The notes under the pieces: generated by a model
Told to the model about the DNA's origin: nothing
What the model saw: only the letters and a program-made list of their open reading frames with translations
Database searches by the model: none
Shown: positions 8,208 to 38,622 of the stretch, one piece after another
How positions within the stretch are numbered: position 1 is the first letter of the stretch
How the letters are laid out: each line of letters starts with the position of its first letter
Made by a program: the position numbers and the translations under genes
Origin: an uncultured Bdellovibrionales bacterium
GTDB lineage: Bacteria > Bdellovibrionota_C > UBA2361 > CAYQVO01
Assembly (NCBI GenBank): GCA_964421085.1
Contig: CAYQVO010000002.1
Location: forward strand, 91,134 to 155,133
Reading direction: 5' to 3'
DNA: 64,000 nucleotides

Positions 8208-8210
8208 ATC

Positions 8211-24297: not shown

Positions 24298-24567
24298 ATG
24301 TCGGGCAGGCGAAAGGGCGAAAGCGGTGCGAGTCTTATGGAATACGTTATTCTCCTCAGTTTTGTCGCCATGGCTGTTATTCCCGTAGTCAAGTATTTTG
24401 GTCTTCGTGGGGCGTGCAGAGAATGTGTGAACGCCTGCGCGATTTCGCCTCCGCCCGAAAACGTGGATACGTGGCTGAACCCGGCACACCGGCAGTCCGT
24501 CATAGATGGCTGCGCTTCCGGGTCCTACTCTGTTGAAGCCCTCTGCGGTTCGTGCAGCACCGGGTAA
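24298..24567 (+). CDS. Small Flp/Fap-pilin-like protein with a Cys-rich C-terminal extension
   Basis: 89 aa. The N-terminus, MSGRRKGESG|ASLMEYVILLSFVAMAVIPV, fits the Flp prepilin motif G/xxxxEY followed by a hydrophobic helix. The C-terminal 50 residues carry 7 Cys (GACRECVNACAISPP...DGCASGSYSVEALCGSCSTG). RBS AAGGAGG at about 24283. Confidence 0.45.
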   Translation: MSGRRKGESGASLMEYVILLSFVAMAVIPVVKYFGLRGACRECVNACAISPPPENVDTWLNPAHRQSVIDGCASGSYSVEALCGSCSTG

Positions 24568-24987
24568 CGGGGTGTCACATCGGGGTTGAAGCAGGCGTCA
24601 GACCTCTCAGAGTTTTCATTTCAAAATTTTCCGGCGGGCTGGAACCCCCTTTCCATTTTTCCACGAGAAAAAATAATCGCGGCATAAACGGCAACGAGAA
24701 AAATAGAGGCAAGGCCGTTGAGAAGCATAGAGAGGAGGCGGCCGTCCGCGGCAGCGGACGATACCGGCGCCGCTGTAAGTCGTGACAGTAAATCCATTAA
24801 AGGGCTCAATTAGTTCAGGGACAGGCGGCGAATGACGCCGATCCCCCGGAGGAAGCCGGAGGATTGGCCGGCAGGTTATTTTCGCGTTTTTTGGGGTGCT
24901 TATGACGGCAAAAGGGCATGGCAAGGGTGGGTGAACAGGCCGCCGTCATGCTCCGAATCGCCCCCGGATCATTTCCCATCATAAATA

Positions 24988-25758
24988 ATGCAGAGATCAA
25001 CTGCAGATGAAGTTGAAGTATTGAAAATGAGACAGCTTGTGGAGGATAGAGACATCACCATCGAGGCAGGCGCGTCTGTTCAGGAAGCGGATGCAGACCA
25101 TGTCGATATGCTGCTCCTTGGAGAGCTCAGCGGGAAGCTTTCTCCGGAACGCATCTATCCGTCGTCGATTGAAGGCAGGTGTGCGGATGAAAACGTCGAA
25201 CGTCACATTGCGCGTTACAGGTTCGCCGCGGAATTTATCGGCGAGGGTGATGTTGTGCTCGATGCGGGATGTGGAGCGGGGTATGGTTCCGCGATAATCG
25301 CAGCAAAGGCAGGATCAGTAATCGGTGTCGACATATCCGGCGAGGCTGTGGGTTTTGCCCTCGCGACATATCAGAGAAAGAACGTAACTTTTTTGTGCGA
25401 AGATCTGGCCAGGTTCACACGTAAAGACGGAGAGTTCGACGGTGTAGCATGCATCGAAACATTGGAACATCTCGCACCGGAATTGTGCAGGAGTTTCATG
25501 AGAGCAGTCCGGCGATTGCTCAAACCCGGGGGGGTTCTAATAGCGTCATCTCCCATGCTGCGTTACAAAAACGGAAAGCCTTTCATCACGAATCCTCACC
25601 ACATCAACGAAATGCCAAGAGATGCGCTCCTGAGATTTTTCGTCGAAACTCTCCCGGGTTTTGGGTTTCAGTTCTTTCACCAGAAACAGAACGTTTTCAC
25701 GCCTCTTCTCGATGAGAACACAGGGTTTTGTGTCGTCGTGGCGCGGAAGGAAGGATGA
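24988..25758 (+). CDS. Class I SAM-dependent methyltransferase
   Basis: SAM-binding motif VVLDAGCGAGYGSAIIA, then motif II/III (DGVACIETLEHL, LKPGGVLIASSP). 256 aa. Confidence 0.8.
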   Translation: MQRSTADEVEVLKMRQLVEDRDITIEAGASVQEADADHVDMLLLGELSGKLSPERIYPSSIEGRCADENVERHIARYRFAAEFIGEGDVVLDAGCGAGYGSAIIAAKAGSVIGVDISGEAVGFALATYQRKNVTFLCEDLARFTRKDGEFDGVACIETLEHLAPELCRSFMRAVRRLLKPGGVLIASSPMLRYKNGKPFITNPHHINEMPRDALLRFFVETLPGFGFQFFHQKQNVFTPLLDENTGFCVVVARKEG

Positions 25759-26648
25759 TGCCGCCCGATCCCGGTAAAACAATCGCGGATAATCTGCAAC
25801 GGGTAGATGAACTAGTGGAAGGCAGCCTCCGGATTCTCGACGGTTATCCGCTCTTCAGCTGGCTGGAGATCACAGCGACGGATTCGTGCAATCGACGGTG
25901 CGTATTCTGTCCGCATCCGGCAGCTCAGTCAAAGGCCGGCCACTTCATGGCAAAAGCATTGTATGAAAAAATAGCGGTTGAGCTCGAGGCGGTGGGATAC
26001 TGTGGAACTGTGATGCTGGCAGGATACGGAGAACCCCTTCTTTCACGGAATATAGTGGACATGACACGTGTCTTTGCCGGAATCTGCAACACTGAAATCA
26101 CAACCAACGGCGATCCCCTGACACCGCGGTTGATCACGGAACTGATGAACGCCGGAGCTTCGAGGCTCATCGTCAGCCTTTACGACGGCCCCCATCAAAT
26201 CGAGAAATTCTCCTCTATGTTCGCGGAGGCAGGGGCCCCGTCCGTGTTCTACGTTCTGAGAGACCGATGGTATCCGGCGGAAAAAGATTTCGGTCTCAAA
26301 CTGACCAACCGCGCAGGGACCGTTTCTGCCGGGAATCAACCCCCTGTCGATGAGAGCCGGGCATGCTTTTACCCGCACTATATGATGATGGTAAACTGGG
26401 AGGGCAGTGTGTACCTGTGCACTCAGGACTGGAACCGGAAGCAAGCCTGCGGAAACCTCACGACAAGCTCGCTTCTGGAGGTATGGACGTCTCCGCCTTT
26501 CAGGAAATACCGGACGCTTCTTGCAGATGGGCGGCGCGCAATCGAGCCTTGTTCAGAGTGCAACGCTGATGGAATGATGCACGGGAGGAATCATGCGCGC
26601 GGATGGGGGATTTTTTACGGGAAAATGCCGGCGAATGAACCACGATAA
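25728..26648 (+). CDS. Radical SAM enzyme with C-terminal SPASM/twitch domain
   Basis: CxxxCxxC cluster motif (TDSCNRRCVFCPHP), GGEP-like motif (GYGEPLL), and a C-terminal auxiliary-cluster cysteine pattern (CFYP...YLCTQDW...ACGNL...EPCSECN). Overlaps the upstream methyltransferase and the downstream aminotransferase, so they are translationally coupled. Confidence 0.8.
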   Translation: MCRRGAEGRMMPPDPGKTIADNLQRVDELVEGSLRILDGYPLFSWLEITATDSCNRRCVFCPHPAAQSKAGHFMAKALYEKIAVELEAVGYCGTVMLAGYGEPLLSRNIVDMTRVFAGICNTEITTNGDPLTPRLITELMNAGASRLIVSLYDGPHQIEKFSSMFAEAGAPSVFYVLRDRWYPAEKDFGLKLTNRAGTVSAGNQPPVDESRACFYPHYMMMVNWEGSVYLCTQDWNRKQACGNLTTSSLLEVWTSPPFRKYRTLLADGRRAIEPCSECNADGMMHGRNHARGWGIFYGKMPANEPR

Positions 26649-27984
26649 ATTGAAAGATCCATCTCCTCCTGCCTCACTCACGCGGGATCTGATGGAATCC
26701 ATGCCCGATAGAATCCTGAATGAGAGCTACGGGAAGGCGCCCGGTTCCCTCTATATCCGCAGCGCATCCGGATGTTTTATCGAAGATATCGACGGCAGGC
26801 AGTACATCGACATGGCGCTTGGAGGTGGTACCGCGATTCTTGGACATGCCGGTGCCTGTGTCACGGATCGTATCATTTCCCGGATTAAGTCCGGCGCCAT
26901 TTACGCAGTCCCAAATCCCATCGCGCATCAGTATGGCGAAGTTCTGCATGAAGCGATGCCCTGGTTCTCGCATTTCGCTTTCTGCAGCACCGGGTCGGAG
27001 GCGACGATGCGGGCTGTCCGCATTGCAAGGGCCTTTAACGGCAGGCGGAAGATTGGACTGTTCAGCGGCGGCTGGCATGGTTCGCACGATATGGTTCTTG
27101 TGGAGGAGGATTATTCGGGGCCGGAAGCAGAGCCGCGGATGGTTCTGAAATCAGCAGGCACGCCGGAGGAGATCAAAGATCTCATCGTCTTCCTTCCTTA
27201 CAACCATCCTGACGCGTTCGAGCTGATTCGAAAAAATCGATCCGAACTCGCAATGATCATGATTGAGCCGTCCCAGGGATCCAACCCACGGGATGACGTC
27301 GTTCAGTTTCTTCGCGATCTGAGGAAGGTGACGGAGGAAACTGACATACTGCTCTGCTTCGATGAGATCATAACGGGCGGGAGGCTCGCCCTGGGCGGAG
27401 CTCAGGAACTGTACGGGATTCATGCGGATCTCGCGACTTACGGAAAGGTGCTTGGGGGAGGTCTTCCAATAGGAATCGTCGGTGGAAGAGAGGAGGTAAT
27501 GCGTGTCATTCGACCCTCCGCCGCGGAGAATCGCACTCCTGTGTTTCTTGGAGGGACTTTTTCCGCAAATCCGCTCTCTGTTGCGGCAGGGATGGAGGTG
27601 ATGAGGTATCTCCGGGAAAATGAAGCGGTCATCTATCCGTGTTTGAATGAGAACGGAGCTTTGTTGAAGAACGGTGTGAACGAATTCTGCGAAGCACGAA
27701 ATATTCCCGCATATATGACCGGAGCCGGATCGATGCTTCGGCTCGTTTTCAGCAGCCGCTCCGTCAGGTCCCGCCGTGAACGGGATTTTGCCGAAGTAAA
27801 TCCGGAGGTGCAGAAAGAATTTTATGCATCGCTTCTCGCATCGGGCGTGCATGTGGGAACGAACCGGCTTAATTTTCTCTCGATTTGTCATGATCAGACG
27901 ATTATACGGAAGGTGCTGGACTCGTATACGGAAAGCCTCGATAAATTCACCGTGGCGGGGAGATTCCGGAGATCTGCGGAATGA
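26635..27984 (+). CDS. Class-III (PLP, fold type I) aminotransferase, glutamate-1-semialdehyde aminomutase-like
   Basis: Motifs GSEATMRAVRIARAFNGRRKI and DEIITGGRLALGGAQELYGIHADLATYGKVLGGGLPIGIVGGREEVM (PLP lysine region). The start is uncertain (26593, 26635 or 26695). Confidence 0.8.
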   Translation: MNHDKLKDPSPPASLTRDLMESMPDRILNESYGKAPGSLYIRSASGCFIEDIDGRQYIDMALGGGTAILGHAGACVTDRIISRIKSGAIYAVPNPIAHQYGEVLHEAMPWFSHFAFCSTGSEATMRAVRIARAFNGRRKIGLFSGGWHGSHDMVLVEEDYSGPEAEPRMVLKSAGTPEEIKDLIVFLPYNHPDAFELIRKNRSELAMIMIEPSQGSNPRDDVVQFLRDLRKVTEETDILLCFDEIITGGRLALGGAQELYGIHADLATYGKVLGGGLPIGIVGGREEVMRVIRPSAAENRTPVFLGGTFSANPLSVAAGMEVMRYLRENEAVIYPCLNENGALLKNGVNEFCEARNIPAYMTGAGSMLRLVFSSRSVRSRRERDFAEVNPEVQKEFYASLLASGVHVGTNRLNFLSICHDQTIIRKVLDSYTESLDKFTVAGRFRRSAE

Positions 27985-28349
27985 TGAGCAGGTCGGAAAC
28001 AACAGCGCGTGAATGGCTCGAAAAAGGGCGGGAGTATTCCCGGCGGAACGATCCTGGAGAGTCTCTCGCATGCTTTCTCCGGGCTGTGGATCTCGACCCC
28101 TGGTGCCTCGATGCGTATCTTGGCATTGGAGATGTATTCATGGCGAGTGGTCAGTTCCTTGAAGTATTATCCGCTGTCAATAAGGCTGAGGAACGTTTCG
28201 GAGATCATCCCTGGCTGCTTGCGACCCGTGGACATGCCCTTGTCCGCCTCGGGCTGCGCCGAAGAGCGCTCGCTACGTACGAGAAGGGCTGCCGGCTGTT
28301 TCCGGAAGTATACGAAAATGAACTTTTTGCGCAGCGACTGCGTAAATAA
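27981..28349 (+). CDS. TPR-repeat protein
   Basis: 122 aa with three helical hairpins showing the TPR signature (W-LG-Y-A-F-A-P). The stop overlaps the aminotransferase stop/start (ATGA). Confidence 0.55.
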   Translation: MMSRSETTAREWLEKGREYSRRNDPGESLACFLRAVDLDPWCLDAYLGIGDVFMASGQFLEVLSAVNKAEERFGDHPWLLATRGHALVRLGLRRRALATYEKGCRLFPEVYENELFAQRLRK

Positions 28350-28364
28350 ATGGGGACGGTTCCT
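28348..28364. repeat. Second copy of the 17-mer AAATGGGGACGGTTCCT
   Basis: Identical to 12178..12194, the left arm of the terminator hairpin. It lies exactly between convergent stop codons (28346..28348 and 28367..28369). There is no complementary arm here, only a short local inverted repeat tgtttat...ataaaca. Confidence 0.6.
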
Positions 28365-28366
28365 GT

Positions 28367-29749
28367 TTATTTTCTGAGGGCGAGCCTCTGATAAACAAAA
28401 TCCGGCGCTTTGCGGGCTGTGGCTTCTTCATAATGCGCCTTTGCCGTCACGGCATCCGAAGGATCCTGAGAGGAGACAAGTTCCTCCGCGACGATCCGGA
28501 GGATTTCGTGGATTCCTTCACCGCTTTTGACACCTTTCATCCAAAGCTCCTTTATCCGGCCAGTGTGCAGGGAGAGGTCCGGCGAATCTGCTGACAACTC
28601 CTCCGCATCGAACATCGGAAATTCTATCGGAGAGGCTCTGTTTCCAGGTTTGATTGTAATTCTCGGCATGTATGCTTCGGGAAGATTCACACTGTGAAGA
28701 AATTCAGCGATTTCATTCTCGCTCTCTTTCTTCAGCTGGAACCGCGTGTCGTCCAGACATATTCCGAAGGAATCTCCGCACTTTTTCAACCGGGACACGG
28801 TGTTCATGAACTTCTCATACCCAGGAGAGGGGATAAGGCCGCCTCCCGCAATTTTCGAGATATGAGAGTCATTAAGCCCTGGTCCAATGCACCGGTCATC
28901 GGAGTATTCAAGAGGTTTATTTCGAGCATTTTGCCCCGCGAACAGCTCGTCAAAACGGATTTCGAAATCGCTCTCGATACTCCGGTAAGGTATCATCGAG
29001 AACTGCGAGTGGAGCGCGGCAAAGTACACAGCGAACACCTCATTCAGGAATTCCGGCATCACGAAATCCCTTCCGGACATCCTGGCAGCCGTTATCAACG
29101 CTTTCGAAAGGAGATACAGGTCGAAATCCCGGAAAAGAACCAGCAGTTCCCTGAAGTAGAGGAGGAAGGGGACTGTGTATGTGGTTGCTTCACCCCCGAA
29201 GAGGGCACTGCGGCAGAGTGACTGGAGCTTGACATTGAAATGCGTGAGAGCTTCGAGATCGCGCCTTTGAGCGTAAATGACATTATCGTGCATCAAAAAA
29301 GGCATGCTCAGCCATGCCGGAAAGACGTGAACTTTTCCCTGAAATATCTGCGGGAAGGAACCAAAGGGGGTGATTTGCGGCACTTCCCGCCTGTTCAGCG
29401 CGGGGAACAGCTGCTTCATGGAAGGGGAATCTCTGTCGGCTCTGATACGGAAAATGAGGCTGTCATCGGGACACAGCGACAGCCCATTAAACAGGGTCGC
29501 ATGCTGCTGCATGAAATATGCATGCATCGGGAGAAGGTCTACTGGCTCTGAAGAAACAGTCGTGATGCCGTATTTTCGCAGCTCGGACTGCAGGTGCGGT
29601 CTTCCGACAAGCTCCTCTTTCCATGTCGAGAAGATAATTTCATCGACAAGACCGTCAGATCGCCACTGGAGCAGCCGCGTGATGGTTACCATGAACTCGA
29701 GTGAGTCACGTATCTGACCAGTCACAATGGCATAGATCCGTTTTCTCAC
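28367..29749 (-). CDS. Hypothetical protein, paralog A of a divergent pair (unknown family)
   Basis: 460 aa. The N-terminal roughly 250 aa align with the protein at 29859 (YAIVTGQIRDSLEFMVTITRLLQWRSDGLVDEIIFSTWKEEL vs WAIICGLVRDRRAFEEKINSLVQWRSEGILEETVVSTWLGEL; LCPDDSLIFRIRADRD vs SCPDDAHVLKLRADLF; FPQIFQGKVHVF...DNVIYAQRRDLEALTHFNV vs WPQIFNERVVVG...GDVYFYGLRDDLKKLVTFTV). I do not recognise the family. Confidence 0.5.
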   Translation of the reverse strand: MRKRIYAIVTGQIRDSLEFMVTITRLLQWRSDGLVDEIIFSTWKEELVGRPHLQSELRKYGITTVSSEPVDLLPMHAYFMQQHATLFNGLSLCPDDSLIFRIRADRDSPSMKQLFPALNRREVPQITPFGSFPQIFQGKVHVFPAWLSMPFLMHDNVIYAQRRDLEALTHFNVKLQSLCRSALFGGEATTYTVPFLLYFRELLVLFRDFDLYLLSKALITAARMSGRDFVMPEFLNEVFAVYFAALHSQFSMIPYRSIESDFEIRFDELFAGQNARNKPLEYSDDRCIGPGLNDSHISKIAGGGLIPSPGYEKFMNTVSRLKKCGDSFGICLDDTRFQLKKESENEIAEFLHSVNLPEAYMPRITIKPGNRASPIEFPMFDAEELSADSPDLSLHTGRIKELWMKGVKSGEGIHEILRIVAEELVSSQDPSDAVTAKAHYEEATARKAPDFVYQRLALRK

Positions 29750-29858: not shown

Positions 29859-31019
29859 ATGAGAAACTGGGCGATAATCTGCGGATTGGTGAGAGACAGG
29901 AGGGCTTTCGAGGAGAAGATCAATTCTCTCGTACAGTGGAGGTCGGAGGGGATTCTCGAAGAGACAGTTGTTTCCACCTGGCTCGGAGAACTCAATGCTT
30001 ATGAAGGCCTTTCGAAGAGCCTGGCCGACAAAGGTGTCATTGTTCTGGAGAGCCTCGAGCCGGAGCTGATCCTTTCGGGTCACAGGATCCATCAGATGAA
30101 GACGCTCGCATACGGGTTGGAATCGTGCCCGGATGACGCTCATGTACTGAAGCTCAGGGCTGATCTCTTCTCTTTTTTCCCCGGTATAAAGCAGGTGCTG
30201 GAAGGGCGGGTGGATACGGCCATTGCGCCGGATCCCGGATGGCCGCAGATCTTCAATGAGCGAGTTGTTGTGGGCACCTTCCTGCCCATTCAGCCATTTT
30301 TCATCGGGGACGTTTACTTCTATGGATTGAGAGACGATCTTAAAAAGCTTGTTACATTCACAGTGGAGCCGGAACTATGCTCTCTGCTGATGAATCCCGA
30401 ACAGGTTTTTCATTTTGCACCCTTCCGGAACCATTTTCAGTTCTTCTTCCAGTATTTCCGGATCAATCCGGGCCTTGTACATCACAGCGTTCAGATGGCG
30501 AGCGATCTCGTGAGGTTCCTGCTCGACGAACCATTTTTCCTGAAAACACTCGCGTCCTGGTTGATGCTTCTCCGGAGGTATTACAGGGTCGGATTCTTCG
30601 AGCGAAGCGAAGGACATTCGCTGCAGGCAGCGGAAGAATTCGCAGGAGTCTCGCTGCCGGAATTCCTTGACCCGATGCTGGAATGTGGGCCTTCATTCCG
30701 CTATGTGGTAAGGCCTGCCAACGCCGTGGGTGGGTCTGATGACGCATGGGTTGCCCCCTGCCTCAACGGAGATTTTCAGCATGATGTGTTCCGCGACCGT
30801 TTCATGGAAGCAGTGGACAGCTTTCCGGATTTTGAATCCTTCCAGAGATTCGGCCAGTCCCCGCTCTACCTTTCAAGTGATGCGATAGAGTTCGCCCGCA
30901 GGCTCAAAAAGAGATTTCCGGATGCGCCCTTTGTCCTGGAAGATCTCCCCGAATCGAGGGGGAGGAGTGTAAGGATCCAGGGGAAACCTTTCGACGGAAT
31001 GGTCAGAGCGGGCCGCTGA
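29859..31019 (+). CDS. Hypothetical protein, paralog B of a divergent pair (unknown family)
   Basis: 386 aa, homologous to 28367..29749 (see there). Divergently transcribed from a shared 109-bp intergenic region. Confidence 0.5.
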   Translation: MRNWAIICGLVRDRRAFEEKINSLVQWRSEGILEETVVSTWLGELNAYEGLSKSLADKGVIVLESLEPELILSGHRIHQMKTLAYGLESCPDDAHVLKLRADLFSFFPGIKQVLEGRVDTAIAPDPGWPQIFNERVVVGTFLPIQPFFIGDVYFYGLRDDLKKLVTFTVEPELCSLLMNPEQVFHFAPFRNHFQFFFQYFRINPGLVHHSVQMASDLVRFLLDEPFFLKTLASWLMLLRRYYRVGFFERSEGHSLQAAEEFAGVSLPEFLDPMLECGPSFRYVVRPANAVGGSDDAWVAPCLNGDFQHDVFRDRFMEAVDSFPDFESFQRFGQSPLYLSSDAIEFARRLKKRFPDAPFVLEDLPESRGRSVRIQGKPFDGMVRAGR

Positions 31020-31027
31020 GCTTGAGA

Positions 31028-31909: not shown

Positions 31910-32630
31910 TTGCGGCCTCGTAAGCCTGCAGGTCTTCCGGAGTTCCGAGACCGTGCATGGCCCATGGTGCGATTTCGAAAATTCCCACCTTCTTCCGCGC
32001 CAGCAGTATCTCGTTATAGACGGGACAGACGTAAAACTCGCCGTTTACTCTGATGTTTTTCTCTATCATCGATACCGCACCCTCGAAGAAGAGGGAACCT
32101 TGCTCGAAATAGTAAATGCCGACAGTCGCATGAGAGCTTATCGGTTCCTTTTCCGCGACGCATTCCACCAGCCCCTCCGGCGATAACTTTGCATAAGACC
32201 ATTTTGGATGGGCTGACTGGAATGTGAGAATGTCTCCGTCCAGTCCGCGTTCCTGTGCATCCGATATGAGGGAGTCAATGTCGAGATCTATCAGCTGGTC
32301 GCTGTTTGCAAGGACCAGAGGGGAATCATTATTGAAAAAGTCGGCGGCAAGCAAAACCGTACACGCTGCGCCTTCCGTGACTTTTTCCACAGTGACGATG
32401 TTGCATCCGGGGGCCAGCGCGTCAAGAAGTTCTTCAAGATTGAACTGCTGACAATGCTCGCGCCGGCATATAAAGGTGAACTTATGATCGATGTCAGGCC
32501 GCACGTTATCGATGACATGGGAAATCATCGGCCTGCCTTTTACGTCTATAAGAGGTTTGGGCAGGGAGTACCCCGCCTCCGCGAAACGTTTCCCGTTGCC
32601 TGCCATTGGAATTACAATGTTGATCGGCAT
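31890..32630 (-). CDS. Sugar/alcohol-phosphate nucleotidyltransferase (LicC/IspD/MobA-like NTP-transferase fold)
   Basis: N-terminal motif IVIPMAGNGKRFAEAGYSLPKPLIDVKGRPMISHVIDNV is the typical glycine-rich nucleotide-binding loop. 246 aa. Overlaps the GDPD and HAD genes, forming an operon. Confidence 0.7.
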   Translation of the reverse strand: MPINIVIPMAGNGKRFAEAGYSLPKPLIDVKGRPMISHVIDNVRPDIDHKFTFICRREHCQQFNLEELLDALAPGCNIVTVEKVTEGAACTVLLAADFFNNDSPLVLANSDQLIDLDIDSLISDAQERGLDGDILTFQSAHPKWSYAKLSPEGLVECVAEKEPISSHATVGIYYFEQGSLFFEGAVSMIEKNIRVNGEFYVCPVYNEILLARKKVGIFEIAPWAMHGLGTPEDLQAYEAANDVTCH

Positions 32631-33262
32631 TCTTCCATTCCCTCCATGAGCTCTCCGGACAAAAATTCAGTAAAGAGAGACTTGTTCACTTCATTGTACG
32701 AATCGACTCCAATAAGGAACCCCCCGCTCGCACGGGCTGCGGCTTTCCCGTGGTCGGAATCTTCCACGATCGCGCACTGTTCAGGAGAAAGTTTCAACAG
32801 CTGAAATGCGCGAAAATAGATCTCCGGATCGGGCTTCGGCAGTCTCACGTCTTCGTTCCCAAGCACTAGAGAGAAGCAGTCGAAGATGCCGCTTTTCTTC
32901 AGCATCAACTCGACACTTCTGTTGACAGCGTTTGAACACACGGCGAGTGTAAATCCCGACTTCCGCAGCAGTTCGAGCATTTCGATTTTTGCGGGATCAG
33001 GACGACAGCGCGCACAGATTGTTTCATAAGTGTATCGCTGCTTGAGGGAAATAACCGGCTTATGAAGCGCCGAAGGGAAGCCTTTGTGAGCAGACAGCGC
33101 TTCGAGCTTCTTCCGGGTAGGAAGACCGTTATAGAATGAAAGATGTTCTTTGCGGGAAATGGTAAATCCAAACGTCCCCAGCGCTTTGTTCAGCGCTTCG
33201 TAGTGCCACTCAGCGGCGTCGACAAGAACTCCGTCGAGATCGAATATTACAGCTTCAATCAT
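32612..33262 (-). CDS. HAD-superfamily hydrolase (subfamily IA, beta-phosphoglucomutase/phosphatase-like)
   Basis: Motif I MIEAVIFDLDGVLVD at the proposed start (ATG 33262, preceded by AGGGA). Motifs II/III (LAVCSNA, GNEDV...KPDPEIYF, VEDSDHG). The ORF track extends the frame to 33355. Confidence 0.8.
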   Translation of the reverse strand: MIEAVIFDLDGVLVDAAEWHYEALNKALGTFGFTISRKEHLSFYNGLPTRKKLEALSAHKGFPSALHKPVISLKQRYTYETICARCRPDPAKIEMLELLRKSGFTLAVCSNAVNRSVELMLKKSGIFDCFSLVLGNEDVRLPKPDPEIYFRAFQLLKLSPEQCAIVEDSDHGKAAARASGGFLIGVDSYNEVNKSLFTEFLSGELMEGMEECRSTL

Positions 33263-33433
33263 TCCGCATCCCTGCTCAAAAGATCCATGGGCAACTTCAC
33301 AACGCGCAGGCGCTGAAGTTCCCTCAGTAGAATACTCGGCTGAAAAGATCCGCATCTTTAAAAGTTTCTTGTCAGAAAGGACCAGGAATTTTTCCTATGA
33401 AAGGACCATGGAACATTGTAAAGTTCCGGGAGA

Positions 33434-34081
33434 ATGGACATTTTTAAATTTGCAGAAGGAATAGAGCGAGGAGCTGGTTCCGCACGGCTTCCCGGCGGTT
33501 CTTTCAACGCCCACTTTGGAAGCGCCTTCAAAGCAGTCCGCAGAGTGTCTCCGGCCGATTTCGTCCGCTTCAGCATTCTCAACTTCGCCGTTCAGCAGCT
33601 GTCGGTCCGGAGCGCATTCATGCCCGCCACTGAACGATATCTCTTTGCGGGAGGTCTTTCAGATACCGACTTTGCGGCTTCTCTCATCGGGATGGTCCCT
33701 TTTCTCCGGGCTTATTTTGCGATTCCCCCCGGAGGGGAGAGTGCAAGTGTTTCTGAAGCGAAACAGATCATCTCCGGAGGCCGGGAAGACGATTTGAAGA
33801 CATTCGAAGTGGTGAACAGGACTCCGGCCGGGTTTCTGTTACAGGAGCCTGAAGCGTCGTTCGGCCTTGTTTCTCTGATCTCGAACGGACAGGAGACTTT
33901 TTCCCGGGAATTAGTTCCCGTTCTGGCTGATTCTCTCAGTTCCGGCGGAACCGCTGTCATGACGGTTCCCTCCGGCGAGATTCCTGAGAATGCGGCCGGC
34001 TTTTCGAGAGTCTGGACATCAACACTCGAGCCGCTTTGTCCGTTTGGGGGATTTACTCTCTGCATACTGAGGAGATTCTGA
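33434..34081 (+). CDS. Hypothetical protein
   Basis: 215 aa. First gene of a plus-strand operon with the GT61 and radical-SAM fusion genes (stop/start abut at 34081/34082). No recognisable motif. Confidence 0.4.
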   Translation: MDIFKFAEGIERGAGSARLPGGSFNAHFGSAFKAVRRVSPADFVRFSILNFAVQQLSVRSAFMPATERYLFAGGLSDTDFAASLIGMVPFLRAYFAIPPGGESASVSEAKQIISGGREDDLKTFEVVNRTPAGFLLQEPEASFGLVSLISNGQETFSRELVPVLADSLSSGGTAVMTVPSGEIPENAAGFSRVWTSTLEPLCPFGGFTLCILRRF

Positions 34082-35239
34082 TTGAACAGCGTGGAATTCA
34101 GGGCGGAGGATTCGTTTTTGACGCTCGAACGCGTTTCGTCGATGAGTGATGAGCCCGAAAGAGAAAGCCTTGTCCTTTTGCGGGAAGCAACACAGTATCC
34201 CAATGCAGAACCGCTCTTTGTGTATGCAGATGAGGCCATACCTGAAGTGTCGCGCAGCCTCCTGTACCGCCAGGCATGGAGCATCGATCCGTCGTACTGT
34301 GTCAAACTTCCCGGCGGCTCGGTATACGGGGAGTGCGGGATAGTGACGGGAGGAGGGGTTTTTCTGCATGATCTCTCGACGCTTGCCGGACGGCATCGCA
34401 AGCCGGCAGAAGTAACCCGGCAGGAAGACGGGAGTGAAATCGCAGGATTCAAAACTGTGAAGCCGGAATACCGCGACTGCTCCGCGGCAATCCTGTCTCC
34501 CCTTATCGCGTGCGGCAAAAATCATTCTCACTGGCTTTTTCATGCGCTGCCTAAAGTGCAGATTTTCAGGGATGCGTCGGTTGCCCCCGACTTTTTCCTT
34601 GTTCTCCCGGCAGTTGCCGGATATCAGCGGGACACCCTGAAAGCACTCGGAATAGGCGATGATCGGATACTTGTGCGCGATCCGGCGCAACCGATGAAGT
34701 TCCGTGAACTCTATGCGTCGTACACGCAGAGCGACGTTTCACCGGACATGACGATCTATGATGAAATCATATCTAAAGTGGATCGGGGAGAGGAAGGACC
34801 TGAAAGAATCTATGTATCCAGAATGGATGCCAGGGGTATGCGGCGTTTCATCAACGAGGAGCAGGTCATTGATGTTGCCCGGAACAACGGATTCCATATA
34901 GTCACCCCCTCCGAGCTTTCGTTTGAAGACGAAGTAAGAATTTTCCGGAATGCCCGCATTATTGCCGGTCCCGTCGGTGCGGGTCTTTACAATGCCGTCT
35001 TCACCCGGCCGGGCTGCGTCATTGTAGCCATGAGCGAACCAGCTTATGTAATGGACTGGCCGCTGCAGCTCGCGTCGCTTCGAAAACATTCCATAGGCTA
35101 TCTTCTCGGGAACAGTTTTCTCTCGATGGAACCGGTACACCGGGGGTGTCACAACAGCTGGGTTCTCAATCCGGCTCTCTTCGATCTGGCGCTTAACAAC
35201 CTTCTTTCCGGCAAAGACGCGGCCAGGGCGGGCAGGTGA
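34082..35239 (+). CDS. Glycosyltransferase family 61 / DUF563 protein
   Basis: HWLFHALPKVQIF motif, and a C-terminal block RRFINEEQVIDVARNNGFHIVTPSELSFEDEVRIFRNARIIAGPVGAGLYNAVFTRPGCVIV that is characteristic of DUF563/GT61 (EOGT-like) transferases. Confidence 0.65.
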   Translation: MNSVEFRAEDSFLTLERVSSMSDEPERESLVLLREATQYPNAEPLFVYADEAIPEVSRSLLYRQAWSIDPSYCVKLPGGSVYGECGIVTGGGVFLHDLSTLAGRHRKPAEVTRQEDGSEIAGFKTVKPEYRDCSAAILSPLIACGKNHSHWLFHALPKVQIFRDASVAPDFFLVLPAVAGYQRDTLKALGIGDDRILVRDPAQPMKFRELYASYTQSDVSPDMTIYDEIISKVDRGEEGPERIYVSRMDARGMRRFINEEQVIDVARNNGFHIVTPSELSFEDEVRIFRNARIIAGPVGAGLYNAVFTRPGCVIVAMSEPAYVMDWPLQLASLRKHSIGYLLGNSFLSMEPVHRGCHNSWVLNPALFDLALNNLLSGKDAARAGR

Positions 35240-35300
35240 TCTGCTGCGTGGGATTGCACGCCCCCGCAAGAAATCGGCATACTGAAGGCTGGAGCTCAGA

Positions 35301-38300
35301 ATGGATCCGAACAGGCTGATAATCGACTTTAAAAAGCAACTTGGTAACAGAAACACCTCCGCTGTTCATGCTCTCGATATCTTCCGTGATTTGAGAGACG
35401 TTCTGGAGCAGGAAACAAAATCCGATCCTCTCCTTGCCGCAATAAGGGAAAATATACTGCGGCTTTTCATGCAGAGATCCTGTCTGCTTCCCGACCTGGA
35501 ACGTGAGGCGGCTGTTTTGAACCTGATTCTTCAGGATTCCCGTTCCAATACTGCTGAAATATCCTCCGGGCTGGAAGAATGGGGGCGCTCAGTCGCGGAA
35601 CTTTCTGAAATCCTGCGTGGAATCAAAACCCATGTGACACAGATGGCGACGCGACACCGTATGACGGAGCAGAAACCTTCCGTGGTCCGGATTGAAAACA
35701 GTAATTTCAGCGAGGCTCGTGAACTCAATATAAAGATCCTCGCCTGCGAGATGCTGCTTGGCAGCACCGATCCGGCTCCCTTTCCTCCGAACATGCAGGT
35801 GGAATCAACCAGCAGGTGCAATGCGCGGTGCAGAATATGCGGGCACTTCTTCCATCCCGCCAGGGCATACAGAGATCTCGATTTTCAGGTGTTTCTCAAA
35901 TTGTCGCCCGTTCTTCCGTATGTCCAGTGCCTTGAACTGCACACTTATGGAGAAGCCTCTCTCGCGCCGCATTTCACCGCCATGTGCGAAGTCTGCAGGA
36001 GCTTCGGCTGCAGAACGCATGTGCTTACAAACGGCTCGACTCTTGGGGTGGATAGTCCCCTGGCAGACGTAGACCAGATTGGAATCAGCGTTGATTCAGA
36101 CAACGAACGCACCTTTGACGCCGTCCGCAAAGGGCTGCGGTTCAAAACAGTGATCGAAAACATCAAAGCGTTTCGCCGGCGGAATCCGGACAATTTCATG
36201 TACTTTCTGGTGACGATACACCGGGCGAATGTAGATGAAATATCCGGCATAGCCGGACTAGCCTGCGATCTGGGCCTTCAGGCCGTCTGCCTCAGTCTCA
36301 TGTCGGCCATTCATCCGTCACTGCGGCCGGTCACTTTAACGGCCCAGGACGTTCCTCTTTACCGGGAGGAAGTGGAGAAAGCAGAAAGAATCTGCTCGAA
36401 GCGCGGCGTAGATGTGTATGATTACGCTTTTCTGGACGGTCTCCCCGATCAGACGGAACCTCTGAACAAGGAGGCATGTTTAAGGGTGTTCGAGTCGCTT
36501 ATCCCTCCATCTGCCGGCGCGCCGCCCGATATTGAAGAGTTGACAACGAGGCTCGCAAAGATTGAGTGCGGCGCATATCCTGCGTCCCTGCACCGGTTTT
36601 TCACACTGGAAGCCGCGTCTTTCGAATCCACTCGAAAAGCGGAGATCGAAAGAGTCCATGAAGACACTTCTATGGAACCTGTCACGGTCGATACCGGCAG
36701 GCTGAAGGAACGGCTGCATGAACTCCGGAGTGAAATAGAAAGGCGGGGCAGGGATGCGCTCGTAATTCCGTACTGTACCGCCCCCTGGTTCAGGCTTGAA
36801 GTGAAGGCGGACGGAGGGATCTTCCCCTGCTGCAGCTGGAAAGGACCACCGTTTGCCGATCTTGCAGTTCAGTCTGTCGCGGAGATATGGCACGGGCCGT
36901 TCATGACGGCGCTCAGGCAGGGATGTTACGGCGAAGGAGAACTCCCTCCTTTCTGCCTGAACTGCAGGAGCATAGACCGTTATCAGGGCCTGACTGAAAC
37001 GATCAGCACGATGAACGAATTCGGCCTGGACTATAACACAATCCGGAAGATTCCCGGGTTTTCTCCTCCGCCCGGGAAACTCCAGCTTATACGCGCGGGC
37101 GCGCCGGAGATTGAATACGTTCCCATTGATAAATCGTATCCGGGAGGATTTTACGAACTCCGGGGGGATGCAGAAGGGCGGGGGAACAGGAGCAGTGGTT
37201 ACGACTTTGTCATCTCGCCCGGCCCCAGGCTCTTCTGCGAAAGACCTTCGAGCATGCGAAGCAGAAAGATTTCCTGTGGAGTTCTCGGCGGCGCTTCCCT
37301 TCCTTTGAAGGACATCCTGAAGCTCGAAGGACGCCCGCGTGTATCGATAACAGAAACCGCTCATGAATTATTCCCCTCCGGTCTTTTGTTTGTGTCTGTC
37401 CGTTTCCGTAATGAAGGTGAAGTGCCGCTCTTCGGCAGGGATTCGCATCCCGATTGCGTGGACAGAGCGGGACTGCGCGTGCTTAAGCAGGAAGCCGGAG
37501 TCACATCGGCAGCGCGTGAAGAAAGAATGGATATGCCGTTTGAGTGGATACTCCCCGGATCGGAGTACCATATCTCGGGACTCTTTGACTTCTCGGGCCT
37601 TGAACCCGGGACATACACGGTGGAGACAGGAATTGTCCGGGAAGGAGAATTCTGGATTTCGGAGGAATCTGAACGGCGAAGCTTTGAAATAACCACGGCA
37701 GAAGCCTCAACCATGACTCCTGTCGAAGTGTCGAGAGTTCCGGGATCGAAAGGGATTGCGCTTACATTCGACGCGGGAGCGTCAATACCGCCTTCGGACG
37801 CCCTTCTCGATTTTCTGCAGAAGAGGCGGATGCAATGCACAGTTTTTCTGACCGGGAGGTCGATAGCCTCTTTTCCTGAACATGCGCGTCGCATCGCGAA
37901 TGAGGGGCATGAAGCGGCAAACCACACATACAATCATCCATGGCTGTCCTTTCTGCACGATCCCCATCCGGCGCAGGGAGTGGACAAAGACTTTCTCATG
38001 AAAGAGCTTTATTCCACCGAAGAGGCCTTCTTCAAAACGACAGGGCGCACGATGTCGAGACTCTGGCGGGCTCCCTACGGAGCAAGAAACGCGGAGATTC
38101 TCAAATGGGCGATGGAAGAAGGATTTACTCACGTTTTCTGGTCGCACGATTCAAACGACTGGAGGATAGGCTCTTCCCTTAATTCCATGAAGTGTACCCC
38201 GCAGAGCGTCTTTGAGACGCTTAAGAACAAACTTCGCCAGTTTGATGATGCCGATGGCGCTGTAGTTCTATTTCACCTCTCGACCTACAATCAACCGGAC

Positions 38301-38390
38301 ATGCTTTCAGAGATGTCGAAATTCATCGACTGGATTGCCGGCCGGGGTCTTGCCTTTCGGACGGCAGGCTCTCTTCTCACGATGATCTGA
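35301..38390 (+). CDS. 1029-aa fusion protein: N-terminal helical domain, radical-SAM core, SPASM domain, beta-rich linker, and C-terminal NodB-type polysaccharide deacetylase domain
   Basis: Radical-SAM cluster motif ESTSRCNARCRICGHFF at residues about 166-180. SPASM cysteines IPYCTAPWF...GGIFPCCSWKG...GCYGEGELPPFCLNCRS at about 490-560. NodB motifs IALTFDAGAS...CTVFLTGRSI...GHEAANHTYNHPWL at about 820-910, with conserved Asp, His and His positions present. Confidence 0.8.
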   Translation: MDPNRLIIDFKKQLGNRNTSAVHALDIFRDLRDVLEQETKSDPLLAAIRENILRLFMQRSCLLPDLEREAAVLNLILQDSRSNTAEISSGLEEWGRSVAELSEILRGIKTHVTQMATRHRMTEQKPSVVRIENSNFSEARELNIKILACEMLLGSTDPAPFPPNMQVESTSRCNARCRICGHFFHPARAYRDLDFQVFLKLSPVLPYVQCLELHTYGEASLAPHFTAMCEVCRSFGCRTHVLTNGSTLGVDSPLADVDQIGISVDSDNERTFDAVRKGLRFKTVIENIKAFRRRNPDNFMYFLVTIHRANVDEISGIAGLACDLGLQAVCLSLMSAIHPSLRPVTLTAQDVPLYREEVEKAERICSKRGVDVYDYAFLDGLPDQTEPLNKEACLRVFESLIPPSAGAPPDIEELTTRLAKIECGAYPASLHRFFTLEAASFESTRKAEIERVHEDTSMEPVTVDTGRLKERLHELRSEIERRGRDALVIPYCTAPWFRLEVKADGGIFPCCSWKGPPFADLAVQSVAEIWHGPFMTALRQGCYGEGELPPFCLNCRSIDRYQGLTETISTMNEFGLDYNTIRKIPGFSPPPGKLQLIRAGAPEIEYVPIDKSYPGGFYELRGDAEGRGNRSSGYDFVISPGPRLFCERPSSMRSRKISCGVLGGASLPLKDILKLEGRPRVSITETAHELFPSGLLFVSVRFRNEGEVPLFGRDSHPDCVDRAGLRVLKQEAGVTSAAREERMDMPFEWILPGSEYHISGLFDFSGLEPGTYTVETGIVREGEFWISEESERRSFEITTAEASTMTPVEVSRVPGSKGIALTFDAGASIPPSDALLDFLQKRRMQCTVFLTGRSIASFPEHARRIANEGHEAANHTYNHPWLSFLHDPHPAQGVDKDFLMKELYSTEEAFFKTTGRTMSRLWRAPYGARNAEILKWAMEEGFTHVFWSHDSNDWRIGSSLNSMKCTPQSVFETLKNKLRQFDDADGAVVLFHLSTYNQPDMLSEMSKFIDWIAGRGLAFRTAGSLLTMI

Positions 38391-38400
38391 CATTATTACG

Positions 38401-38622
38401 TCAGGTGCCTCCCTGCATAATCCTCAGGTAGTGCTCTACGCTCCTGTCGTAAGTTCTCTCCGCCTCGGCGTTGAAATAACATGCCGGAAGTTCCCGGCGT
38501 GCCCTGTGGTAGGCGATACACTTGCAGCACAGGCCGCGTTTGTCGCACGGATACGAGCAGTTGCAGTTTTTGAGGTTCTTTTCTTTTGAGCAGGTCGTCA
38601 TAATCCGGCTTCTCCTCCCCAT
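38401..38622 (-). CDS. Small Cys-rich protein (8 Cys, probable metal-binding), hypothetical
   Basis: 73 aa, [50 protein letters not shown]... Overlaps the 3' end of yraN on the same strand, so it is probably co-transcribed. Confidence 0.4.

Follow-up and report, generated by a model that had tools for sequence, protein, structure and literature searches.

The 64-kb stretch of DNA analyzed here (the window) contains a block of ~13 kb (24988-38390) whose 12 genes form a real cluster of predicted soluble sugar-modifying enzymes. We consider it slightly better than an even bet that this block, a join of three gene modules, serves to modify unusual sugar donors and to attach them to a glycoconjugate of the cell surface, with all steps taking place in the cytoplasm. 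The decoration is best read as an amino, methyl or phospho-linked sugar that is tailored independently of oxygen. The substrates of all block enzymes are predicted from sequence and several of the enzymes are uncharacterized. Pfam and NCBIfam profile searches reproduced every domain call of an initial annotation of this DNA (Table 1). Since no block protein reaches a curated NCBIfam cut-off, the names are given at domain level only. A scan for TM-like segments predicted none in the 12 proteins. The initial annotation had also proposed that the block is directed at glycans and had known of no characterized pathway with such a composition. Both views hold: The whole block matches no characterized O-antigen, capsule or flagellin locus, and modules 1 and 2 occur alone in surface-sugar or flagellin-sugar loci of other bacteria, so that the block represents a locus of familiar type in an unusual form rather than something wholly new.

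Table 1. Features of the window discussed in the text, with positions, strands and profile matches
Feature	Position	Strand	Description
ABC system	7041-11178		Sole ABC system of the window; MacB/FtsX and HlyD type
Flp-like ORF	24298-24567		89 aa; one hydrophobic segment, G/ASLMEY motif, 6 Cys in C-terminal half
Module 1, methyltransferase	24988..25758	+	Class-I SAM-dependent; Pfam PF13649, 72 bits; Methyltransf_25/11/31
Module 1, small radical-SAM enzyme	25728..26648	+	306 aa; radical-SAM (twitch/SPASM) dehydrogenase homolog, BtrN-type; Pfam Radical_SAM and SPASM
Module 1, aminotransferase	26593..27984	+	Class-III PLP enzyme, glutamate-1-semialdehyde (GSA) aminomutase-like; Pfam Aminotran_3, 151 bits
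Small TPR protein	27981..28349	+	Three to four repeats; Pfam TPR_14/TPR_2/TPR_1
Module 2, paralog A	28367..29749	-	460 aa; family without Pfam match; predicted GT-A/nucleotide-diphospho-sugar-transferase fold
Module 2, paralog B	29859..31019	+	386 aa; predicted transferase, same family as paralog A
Module 2, GDPD-like protein	31028..31909	-	Divergent; glycerophosphodiester phosphodiesterase fold; Pfam GDPD, 41 bits (cut-off 23.6)
Module 2, nucleotidyltransferase	31890..32630	-	Sugar-1-phosphate type (RmlA/GlmU-N/AglF-like); Pfam NTP_transferase, 50 bits
Module 2, HAD-IA enzyme	32612..33355	-	Beta-phosphoglucomutase/phosphatase-like; Pfam HAD_2, 109 bits
Module 2, overlapping gene trio	33355-31028	-	HAD, nucleotidyltransferase and GDPD genes in order of transcription
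Module 3, orphan protein	33434..34081	+	215 aa; no family match
Module 3, GT61 glycosyltransferase	34082..35239	+	Pfam Glyco_transf_61, 78.9 bits (cut-off 27)
Module 3, fusion protein	35301..38390	+	1029 aa; Pfam Radical_SAM, SPASM, Polysacc_deac_1; residues 161-335 radical-SAM core, ~490-560 SPASM/twitch, 814-1029 NodB/CE4 deacetylase; 1-160 and 560-810 without assigned domain

Ordinary chromosomal genes flank the block, among them BON and GT87 genes on the left and genes for UPF0102 (yraN) and RNase HII (rnhB) on the right. GC content is flat at ~53% through the region, and the comparison with the flanks suggested earlier revealed no difference in GC3 (0.579 in the block, 0.590 in the flanks, p 0.23) or codon usage (p 0.50). 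A search of the block edges found no tRNAs, Rfam matches, flanking repeats or integrases. The block is not compositionally distinct, and the term island is thus valid in its functional sense only. Its gene order is kept in one close relative (contigs L001 and L002), with 57-88% protein identity (72-88% if the TPR protein is left aside), a range similar to that of the flanking rnhB (78%) and yraN (73%). This relative, ~25% diverged at the protein level, has locally expanded the same types of gene and carries an additional B12-radical-SAM gene. The initial annotation had regarded the block as a single system whose genes should not lie scattered in relatives. Gene-neighborhood comparison found the whole set in this one relative only, where it is kept together, and single modules elsewhere; distant taxa scatter the genes by module. 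All three modules together are confined to the present lineage with its two closely related genomes, and co-evolution as a single system is not supported. The best explanation is a vertically inherited chromosomal locus in which three separable modules have been joined specifically in this lineage.

The adjacency of the three modules could be historical rather than functional. In the extreme case, three unrelated sugar-metabolism operons would lie side by side with no common function, which would agree with their independent distribution in distant taxa and with the lack of a detected shared regulatory signal (promoter and terminator scans remained at chance level). We regard this as unlikely given that the order is conserved in the diverged relative with the same gene types expanded locally, that the genes are tightly packed, with overlaps within two operons and gaps of ~110 bp or less between modules, and that all modules are glycan-directed.

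Judged from its sequence, the small radical-SAM enzyme of module 1 is a homolog of BtrN, the 2-deoxy-scyllo-inosamine dehydrogenase of the butirosin pathway, and thus of the sugar/cyclitol dehydrogenase type rather than a peptide maturase. BtrN is the nearest solved structure (4m7t; E 2.3e-27, ~99 bits, nearly full length), and the two proteins align at the CxxxCxxC motif (CNRRCVFC) and at the single auxiliary cluster, all four cysteines of which are kept. However, their identity is low and the context of BtrN is an aminoglycoside pathway, whereas that of the block enzyme is surface-glycan or flagellar. The enzyme has 846 homologs at E<=1e-10, and its true start probably lies ~9 codons downstream because database copy P0007 comprises 297 aa. 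The alignment to BtrN and the aminotransferase gene 3' of the radical-SAM gene imply the same logic of converting an alcohol via a ketone to an amine. The natural aminotransferase partner of BtrN belongs to a different class, the DegT family, than the class-III enzyme of the block, whose top PDB match is the GSA aminomutase 2e7u (E 6e-64) and which scores 298 bits against hemL-type NCBIfam models, under their cut-offs. We infer that the radical-SAM enzyme would act oxygen-independently on a nucleotide-linked sugar, oxidizing a secondary alcohol to a ketone, that the aminotransferase would turn this ketone into an amine and that the methyltransferase would then methylate the resulting product.

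Module 1 is a widespread and apparently uncharacterized cassette. A CBS-methyltransferase gene lies directly 5' of the radical-SAM gene in all six independent distant loci, and a class-III aminotransferase gene directly 3' in five of them; the exception, L059, has an Aminotran_1_2 gene at this position and its class-III gene ~2 kb upstream. The block's methyltransferase is 43-76% identical to the CBS-methyltransferases 5' of the radical-SAM gene in L002, L004, L006, L007, L047 and L048, and aminotransferase orthologs with 46-65% identity follow this gene in L004/L005, L006, L007, L047 and L048. The N-terminal CBS pair of the orthologs is absent from the block's methyltransferase; together with the extra B12-radical-SAM gene of the relative, this loss suggests that module 1 may be reduced here. 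Nonulosonic-acid or other sugar-nucleotide genes occur in five of the six distant loci and flagellar genes in three (L004: DegT, epimerase, SIS-CBS; L006: FleQ/FlrBC; L007: FliD, FliS, two Maf genes, four flagellin genes; L047: NeuB; L048: FleQ, PseB/PseC-like genes, CTP_transf_3; L059: NeuB, CTP_transf_3). The orthologs lie within nonulosonic-acid (pseudaminic/legionaminic) flagellin islands of Sulfurimonas, Psychrobium and Psychromonas (43-65% identity) and adjoin NeuB/CMP-synthetase genes in two further loci.

These data also bear on a RiPP-like function, in which the Flp-like protein, at its Cys-rich tail, or another peptide would receive cross-links or other modifications from the radical-SAM/SPASM enzymes before being glycosylated. 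Many peptide maturases contain SPASM domains, the radical-SAM part of the large fusion weakly matches ScmE- and PqqE-type models, and the Flp-like ORF with its six cysteines is located 420 bp 5' of module 1. Still, such a function is highly improbable. The peptide substrate initially assumed for both radical-SAM/SPASM enzymes does not suit the small one, a BtrN homolog always accompanied by an aminotransferase, and no precursor-like gene was called between the CBS-methyltransferase, radical-SAM and aminotransferase genes of the six distant loci. All peptide-maturase matches in NCBIfam are far under cut-off (ScmE 56.7 vs 400 bits). The Cys-rich ORF annotated as Flp-like exists, but it has no Flp Pfam match, lacks homologs in contigs L001 and L002 of the relative (retrieved in full but for ~4 kb of one contig) and is not linked with the block at any of the other loci examined. 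No precursor peptide conserved with the block was found.

The HAD, nucleotidyltransferase and GDPD trio together with the paralogs constitutes a conserved module. Five independent loci (L003/L051, L049, L050, L054, L057) likewise combine a nucleotidyltransferase, a HAD enzyme, a mini-GDPD and a paralog; their HAD orthologs are 42-49% identical to the block's, and their nucleotidyltransferase orthologs, which adjoin paralog-family genes, 48-50%. The GDPD-like proteins in the module 2 position of L049, L050, L054 and L057 are shorter (~205-215 aa) and carry the same catalytic motifs that we read from the sequence of the block's protein (HRG, E, ExD, HD). Every NCBIfam match of the nucleotidyltransferase is under cut-off, as is that of the HAD enzyme to TIGR02009 (110 vs 153 bits). 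The latter probably starts at an internal Met ~30 codons in; its alignment with the copy of the relative begins at residue 29. Transcription of the trio runs opposite to the order GDPD-nucleotidyltransferase-HAD given initially.

The description of the paralogs as divergently transcribed members of an unknown family was confirmed (36% identity over 207 aa, E 2e-27). Pfam and NCBIfam yielded no match for either of them, and for paralog A Pfam gave none even at E<=10. The family comprises 584 cluster representatives with invariant residues W41, Q79, R100 and D151. Its predicted fold (pLDDT 94.9) suggests membership of the GT-A/NTase superfamily, and one member matches the LPS-core family WavE (PF07507) near threshold (E 5.8e-6). 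Five of six scanned members with an N-terminal extension have TPR repeats there. By eye, some C-terminal tails in the family alignment look coiled-coil-like; PDB matches occur only at E>=0.2.

Module 2 may follow a Kennedy-pathway-like route: The HAD and GDPD-like enzymes would make or trim a phospho-sugar or phospho-alcohol, the nucleotidyltransferase would activate it as NDP-X and both paralogs would transfer this group, possibly with the small TPR protein as guide. Such an activated head group had been proposed in the initial annotation, and the ftaABCD genes (CD0241-CD0244) for the Type A flagellin glycan of C. difficile set a precedent. In C. difficile, a HAD-superfamily enzyme makes the phospho-alcohol, an NTP_transferase-family enzyme yields CDP-X on which a SAM methyltransferase acts, and a dedicated transferase adds the group to a sugar set by a separate glycosyltransferase (PMC10714395; bioRxiv 10.64898/2026.02.12.704994). 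At the level of enzyme descriptions, module 2 together with the methyltransferase follows the same scheme. While the C. difficile HAD enzyme is phosphoserine-phosphatase-like and the transferase TagF-like, the block has a beta-PGM-like HAD enzyme of subfamily IA, transferases with a predicted GT-A fold and an additional GDPD-like protein, and is not located beside fliC.

Alternatively, the product could be a small molecule, either an aminocyclitol/aminoglycoside-like compound or a solute of the glycosyl-glycerol/glycosyl-glycerate type made by NDP-sugar formation, a GT-A transferase and a HAD phosphatase, with GDPD as source of glycerol-3-phosphate. A BtrN-type dehydrogenase next to an aminotransferase corresponds to 2-deoxystreptamine logic, to which the relative's extra B12-radical-SAM gene could be added. 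Compatible solutes such as mannosylglycerate are usually made in two steps, in which a phosphorylated acceptor is first glycosylated and a dedicated phosphatase then acts on the product, a scheme that would agree with this reading. Nevertheless, we find this quite improbable: The scanned ORFs revealed no 2-deoxy-scyllo-inosose synthase, resistance gene or exporter, modules 1 and 2 elsewhere lie in glycan or flagellar loci, and the TPR fusions and apparent coiled-coil tails (PDB only at E>=0.2) of the paralog family suggest macromolecular acceptors.

In module 3, the GT61 enzyme would add a HexNAc-type sugar, from which the fusion protein would then strip the N-acetyl group in addition to performing a radical modification on the same residue. 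The orphan protein has no match in Pfam, NCBIfam or PDB, and its gene lies directly upstream of a GT61 gene in every instance found, including two homologs in L001 (73% and 45% identity). At least five GT61 genes are present on the two contigs of the relative (four in L001 and a cut one in L002), one of them fused to Methyltransf_24. Species-representative genomes contain only distant relatives of the block's GT61 enzyme: If one 34-residue fragment is left aside, identity peaks at 42% in a 169-residue segment and does not exceed 33% otherwise. A word-indexed search of 5.8 billion proteins found just one second full-length homolog of the fusion protein (L001, 72% identity). The fusion protein has the radical-SAM motif CNARCRIC at residue 173, and its C-terminal 215 aa match Bacillus PgdA-type enzymes (E ~4e-21) among the CE4/NodB de-N-acetylases (PgdA, PdaA, NodB). 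Here, however, the domain shares a polypeptide with a cytoplasmic radical-SAM/SPASM enzyme, and since it has no signal peptide its substrate must be intracellular. Of its CE4 motifs (TFDAG, HTYNH, RAPY, DSNDW, LFH), 2-5 are intact; motif 1 reads TFDAG instead of TFDDG, with Ala replacing the canonical metal-binding Asp, so that its activity as a deacetylase is uncertain.

The ORFs scanned in the window include no nonulosonic-acid synthase (NeuB) or CMP-synthetase, no flagellin, Maf or FlmG-type TPR-GT fusion, and no ABC-2 transporter, flippase, obvious initiating transferase or ligase; the block itself has no exporter or obvious priming enzyme. Neither candidate carrier of the decoration is therefore anchored in the window. 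We lean towards a polysaccharide or LPS-type glycan that is built on the cytoplasmic face and has its export genes elsewhere. ABC-2 transporter genes adjoin module 2 in L049, L057 and the truncated locus L056, GT2 genes in L003, L050 and L057, and RgpF in L057. In Brevundimonas sp. VNH65 and metagenomic contigs, module 2 is embedded with ABC-2, GT2, RgpF and methyltransferase genes, which resembles ABC-transporter-dependent O-antigen or rhamnan-type loci; their transporter, obvious initiating transferase and ligase are not among the scanned ORFs of the window. The coiled-coil-like tails of some paralog-family members (PDB only at E>=0.2) recall chain-terminating enzymes.

The main alternative carrier is a secreted protein such as flagellin. 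The block would then be an island for O-glycosylation in the cytoplasm, of the kind that acts on flagellin, pilin or S-layer proteins and similar to the Maf/FlmG and C. difficile Type A systems. The protein would be decorated directly by soluble transferases, GT61 and its small partner on the one hand and the GT-A paralogs and the TPR protein on the other, and modules 1 and 2 would supply or further modify the sugar. This is a possibility to be taken seriously, if a doubtful one. Consistent with it, all enzymes are soluble and the block holds no lipid-carrier or export genes, module 1 adjoins flagellins and Maf or flagellar regulators in three of six loci, GT61 copy number differs between the two related genomes, and the Flp-like ORF lies at the left edge. 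Maf/FlmG islands likewise consist of soluble cytoplasmic enzymes with TPR- or adaptor-based acceptor recognition: TPR domains recognize flagellin in FlmG and Maf-1, and Maf-2 requires a small cis-encoded adaptor (PMC7591256; bioRxiv 10.1101/2023.12.03.569772). The TPR repeats of the extended paralog-family members would agree with this. In contrast, the block's transferases are of GT61 and a GT-A family without Pfam match, flagellin, Maf and FlmG-type genes are missing from the window's scanned ORFs, none of 39 distant GT61 loci has a flagellin neighbor, the Flp-like ORF lacks a homolog in the relative's available contigs and module 2 elsewhere has a polysaccharide context. As for the small TPR protein, its gene is kept 3' of the aminotransferase gene in the relative (L002; 57% identity over 120 aa), and the protein is a possible adaptor for an acceptor or partner.

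The best-supported reading of the twelve genes of the block (table) is that of a mosaic, cytoplasmic locus for the tailoring and transfer of glycan to a surface glycoconjugate. Module 1 comprises a methyltransferase, a small BtrN-type radical-SAM enzyme and a class-III aminotransferase, with a short TPR gene next to it. Module 2 combines a HAD protein, a nucleotidyltransferase (NTase), a GDPD-like protein and paralogs A and B, and module 3 a 215-aa partner, a GT61 protein and a 1029-aa fusion. The initial annotation had proposed one novel glycan modification system: the ORF map and the domain calls give the same gene content, and the assignment to glycan tailoring stands, but the unity of the system finds no support, as the three modules were never found together outside this lineage among the loci examined. 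A mosaic structure and many orphan enzymes are known traits of glycan loci. Since none of the block proteins reached a curated NCBIfam cut-off, the genes are named at the domain level only. Both flanks hold ordinary chromosomal genes, with BON, GT87, binding proteins and a MacB-type ABC system on the left and UPF0102, RNase HII, SLT, MreBC, PBP2, RodA and IMPDH on the right.

Coordinates of the block genes and of further features discussed in the text (positions in the window unless a contig is named)
Feature	Position	Strand	Remark
Class-I SAM methyltransferase	24988-25758	+	ORF map and domain calls
Radical_SAM + SPASM protein, 306 aa	25728-26648	+	domain calls
Class-III aminotransferase	26593-27984	+	domain calls
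TPR protein, 122 aa	27981-28349	+	domain calls
Paralog A	28367-29749	-	without Pfam or NCBIfam match
Paralog B	29859-31019	+	without Pfam or NCBIfam match
GDPD	31028-31909	-	in overlapping operon with NTP_transferase and HAD-IA
NTP_transferase	31890-32630	-	in overlapping operon with HAD-IA and GDPD
HAD-IA	32612-33355	-	first gene of the overlapping operon
Orphan partner, 215 aa	33434-34081	+	opens the closing operon
GT61	34082-35239	+	in the closing operon
Radical_SAM/SPASM/NodB fusion, 1029 aa	35301-38390	+	end of block
89-aa ORF	24298-24567	+	
Gap after the 89-aa ORF, 420 bp	24568-24987		without convincing ORF
Surface protein candidate, 898 aa	12230-14926	-	
AsnC-type HTH protein, 327 aa	17786-18769	+	
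Partial Radical_SAM match, 281 aa	22173-23018	-	
UPF0102 (yraN), longest ORF, 232 aa	38598-39296	-	domain confined to residues 104-201
RNase HII ORF	39073-39936	-	
GalU-like NTP_transferase	42183-43067	-	outside the block
Cytidylyltransferase-like/HAD fusion	45666-46727	+	outside the block
TPR-sulfotransferase protein, 1739 aa	L057: 15159-20378		metagenomic contig
GT61/TPR-like ORF, at least 909 aa	L013: 1-2727		Oscillatoriales MAG; runs off contig end
Contig end of the close relative	L002: 13400-13589		
Contig end of the close relative	L001: 1-235		

The closest solved structure to the small radical-SAM enzyme is BtrN, a radical-SAM 2-deoxy-scyllo-inosamine dehydrogenase (E 2.3e-27) of similar length (270 aa versus about 300 aa). 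The CxxxCxxC motif is present (CNRRCVFC aligned to CNRTCWYC of BtrN) and all four cysteine positions of the single auxiliary [4Fe-4S] cluster in the C-terminal, short twitch domain are conserved with a spacing of 18 / 44 / CxxC. The predicted reaction is a SAM-dependent oxidation of a secondary alcohol in a sugar or aminocyclitol, to which solely the adjacent aminotransferase points. The enzyme has 846 homologs at E<=1e-10. A CBS-methyltransferase gene lies directly 5' of the radical-SAM gene in 6/6 independent distant loci, and in five of these a class-III aminotransferase gene (46-65% identity) directly follows. In the sixth (L059, a JGI metagenome contig whose radical-SAM protein has also been deposited under the name Arcobacter sp.), Aminotran_1_2 takes that place and a class-III gene is located about 2 kb upstream. 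The window's aminotransferase is nearest to glutamate-1-semialdehyde aminomutases. The neighbours of the distant cassettes are NeuB in a Phycisphaerae genome (L047), NeuB and CTP_transf_3 in L059, FleQ, PseB/PseC-like genes and CTP_transf_3 in Psychrobium (L048), FleQ and FlrBC in Psychromonas (L006), FliD, FliS, two Maf genes and four flagellin genes in Sulfurimonas (L007), and DegT, epimerase, SIS-CBS and GFO/IDH genes in L004. We infer that module 1 could convert an alcohol via a ketone to an amine on a probably nucleotide-linked sugar, independently of oxygen and followed by methylation. No description of this cassette was found in the searchable literature, and searches there on radical SAM in flagellin glycosylation islands gave nothing relevant; a search for BtrN together with nonulosonic acids found no paper containing BtrN, and none of the enzymes of the cassette is named in the nab-cluster paper. 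The cassette, whose homologs number in the hundreds and lie in loci for nonulosonic acids, other sugar nucleotides or flagella, is a testable unit.

A RiPP reading, in which the small radical-SAM enzyme would mature a peptide, was rejected. No conserved precursor peptide gene lies beside it, the gene directly before it in the six other loci being that of the CBS-methyltransferase, and it has no curated maturase match: the best peptide-maturase NCBIfam models gave 19-57 bits against cut-offs of 375-650. The glycopeptide reading offered in the initial annotation finds no support for this enzyme and is at most a weak possibility for the large fusion. The 89-aa ORF upstream, which had been taken as a Flp-like member of the system, carries the motif G/ASLMEY of Flp type, a single hydrophobic, TM-like helix (residues 9-37) and six cysteines in its C-terminal half. 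It did not match Pfam Flp even at E<=5 and has no homolog in L001-L007 (a close relative and distant loci of modules 1 and 2), and we leave it out of the system. The gap that follows it corresponds to the place of the CBS pair in the relative's methyltransferase.

In module 2, paralogs A and B share 36% identity over 207 aa (E 2e-27) and belong to a family of 584 cluster representatives in an exhaustive profile search. Five of five family members scanned had no Pfam match, and the window paralogs did not match WavE (PF07507) at E<=10; one distant member reached 26.2 bits with WavE at a cut-off of 27. N-terminal TPR repeats occur in five of the six scanned members with an N-terminal extension. 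An AlphaFold2 model of paralog B built from an 80-sequence alignment (pLDDT 94.9), which replaced a prediction from 4 sequences (pLDDT 50), places the paralogs in the predicted GT-A/nucleotide-diphospho-sugar transferase fold with a Rossmann-like alpha/beta/alpha core. A metagenome scan with alignment A6 yielded 9 loci. The paralog-family gene is accompanied by module 2 orthologs in each further locus whose flanks are long enough (L003/L051, L049 from Brevundimonas sp. VNH65, L050, L054 and L057), namely NTases 48-50% and HAD proteins 42-49% identical to those of the window. A second NTase paralog is also found there, as is a protein of about 205 aa that retains the GDPD motifs HRG, ExD and HD. 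ABC-2 transporter genes adjoin the module in L049, L057 and the truncated L056, GT2 in L003, L050 and L057, and RgpF in L057; methyltransferase genes are among the neighbours as well. The window GDPD scores 41 bits with PF03009 (cut-off 23.6), shows the catalytic motifs THRG, ES, IEFDV and WHD in its sequence and had no significant match in the PDB. Module 2 would be a Kennedy-like module that follows a 'make, activate, transfer' logic, and this conserved set of four to five genes around a GT-A-fold family without Pfam match is a second testable unit. TPR-enzyme fusions recur around the paralog and GT61 families: a giant TPR-sulfotransferase is encoded about 4 kb downstream of module 2 in L057, and an ORF in L013 unites GT61 and TPR-like matches.

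The putative logic of module 2 has a biochemical precedent in ftaABCD of C. difficile, where a HAD-like enzyme, a CDP-threonine-making NTase, a methyltransferase and a transferase decorate the GlcNAc of flagellin with a phospho-linked group (PMC10714395; bioRxiv 10.64898/2026.02.12.704994). HAD, NTase and methyltransferase genes are also present in the window, but the likeness is one of enzyme logic only: the fta locus has a TagF-like phosphotransferase beside fliC, the window block has neither, and the HAD subfamily differs. A flagellin-type context fits module 1 and the TPR/adaptor features, and in Sulfurimonas the module 1 ortholog adjoins Maf and flagellin genes, whereas the window block does not. 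Among the window ORFs scanned, there was no exporter, initiating transferase, flagellin, Maf or FlmG-type transferase gene and no NulO synthase or CMP-NulO synthetase (no NeuB or CTP_transf_3 match on 50 ORFs). A polysaccharide context fits modules 1 and 2, which are both conserved. The window's NTP_transferase, GT61 and GT-A-fold paralogs represent the NDP-sugar and glycosyltransferase genes expected of O-antigen or capsule loci. A classical self-contained locus of this type was nevertheless rejected, as 12/12 block proteins are without TM segments and the flanks hold no Pfam families of initiating polyprenyl-phosphate transferases, flippases/polymerases or ABC-2 exporters. As a whole, the block matches no characterised O-antigen, capsule or flagellin locus, in line with the initial annotation, which knew of no characterised pathway of this make-up.

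In module 3, a word-indexed search of 5.8 billion proteins brought up only one other full-length homolog of the fusion (Logan run SRR21358178; 72% identity), and the N-terminal and middle regions of the window's fusion have no Pfam match. The NodB domain aligns to PgdA-type deacetylases and keeps CE4 motifs 2-5 (H(S/T)xxH, RxPY, DxxDW, LxH). Motif 1 reads TFDAG in both known copies instead of the canonical TFDDG, and the metal-ligand Asp is therefore missing; PdaA has TFDNG at this motif. Because the fusion has neither a signal peptide nor a convincing TM segment, the predicted deacetylase must act in the cytoplasm. GT61 (PF04577) scores 78.9 bits against a gathering threshold of 27, and its sole sequence match in the PDB, to EOGT, is not significant (E 0.73). 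Its relatives in species-representative genomes are distant: leaving aside one fragment of 34 residues, identity does not exceed 33% except in a segment of 169 residues, where it reaches at most 42%. Probes for flagellin, Maf, FliD and FliS gave no match in 39 distant GT61 loci, and a literature search found no paper containing GT61 or DUF563. The partner directly precedes the GT61 gene in 3/3 known instances. It has no match in Pfam or PDB and no relatives detected outside the lineage, and hhalign revealed no similarity between its family and the Methyltransf_24 half of a GT61 fusion in the relative. GT61 might add a HexNAc-type residue that the fusion would de-N-acetylate and radically modify. 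The very rare radical-SAM/NodB fusion is a third testable unit.

The initial annotation had called the block an island. A horizontally acquired genomic island was rejected: GC is flat at about 53% along the window, GC3 is 0.579 in the block versus 0.590 in the flanks (p = 0.23), codon-usage likelihood does not separate the two (p = 0.50), and neither tRNAs or Rfam matches in the window nor an integrase or direct repeats at the block edges were found. Promoter-like and terminator-like sites occur at chance level. A close relative holds the same genes in the same order on two contigs, L002 and L001. Identities to the window are 76% for the methyltransferase, 77% for the small radical-SAM enzyme, 78% for the aminotransferase and 57% for the TPR protein; 76% and 80% for paralogs A and B, 76% for GDPD, 87% for the NTase and 88% for HAD; 73% for the partner, 76% for GT61 and 72% for the fusion; and, in the flanks, 73% for yraN and 78% for rnhB. 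The relative also has a methyltransferase with a CBS pair, a B12-radical-SAM gene and a double nucleotidyltransferase, and its two contigs together carry at least 5 GT61 genes, including a second partner-GT61 pair and the Methyltransf_24-GT61 fusion. As order and identity are kept alongside such local gene additions, the block is vertically inherited and locally plastic, which is typical of glycan loci. The break between the relative's contigs falls precisely within the divergent promoter region of HAD and partner, and the contig ends carry CTAGAGCGATTCCCGAA in inverted copies, which suggests that a repeated insertion element, bounded by terminal inverted repeats and missing from the window, parts the two contigs. 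The lineage is sparsely sampled: with 15 billion proteins clustered at 90% identity, each of the five housekeeping proteins looked up (MreB, PBP2, a GalU-like NTase, an ABC ATPase, a pyridine-nucleotide oxidoreductase) forms a cluster of its own, and the window's genome was not among the returns of a pattern scan of GTDB species representatives.

Surface- and flagellin-glycan loci set antigenicity, phage and immune recognition, and motility, and most of their tailoring chemistry is still without assignment. The locus described here holds one rare fusion, one widespread uncharacterised cassette and one conserved uncharacterised module. Assigning any of the three would extend bacterial glycobiology by new reactions and help to annotate many genomes better, while no concept is overturned. 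It is also conceivable, though we consider it rather unlikely, that the locus encodes an oxygen-independent radical-SAM route that leads to a decorated glycan of a new kind. The fusion would then remove the N-acetyl group from an amino sugar installed by GT61 and, coupled to this, oxidise, epimerise or C-methylate that residue by radical chemistry; the GT-A family would be a new class of enzymes that transfer an NDP-activated head group, phospho- or glycosyl-, delivered by NTase, HAD and mini-GDPD; and the BtrN-like cassette would represent a general, unrecognised bacterial amination of nonulosonic or other sugars.

Several further genes of the window deserve mention. Two sugar-activation genes lie outside the block (table). 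The yraN ORF overlaps the RNase HII ORF by 224 nt, and the latter has an N-terminal extension of about 100 aa; the real starts of both are probably internal. A 338-aa membrane protein had no Pfam match. The 281-aa protein matches the middle of the Radical_SAM profile only and is PA0069/Rv2578c-like below the cut-off; it has a single cysteine, so that no CxxxCxxC cluster site is possible, and appears to be a degenerate member of the radical-SAM fold. Two AsnC-type HTH units and a weak NirD/L-like match characterize the 327-aa protein, which may be a fused siroheme decarboxylase (AhbA/B)-like enzyme and, if so, would hint at an alternative haem pathway and an anaerobic lifestyle. The 898-aa protein, perhaps a surface protein and a potential target of glycosylation, matches only beta-propeller (Rax2/DUF5122) and Ig-like domains.
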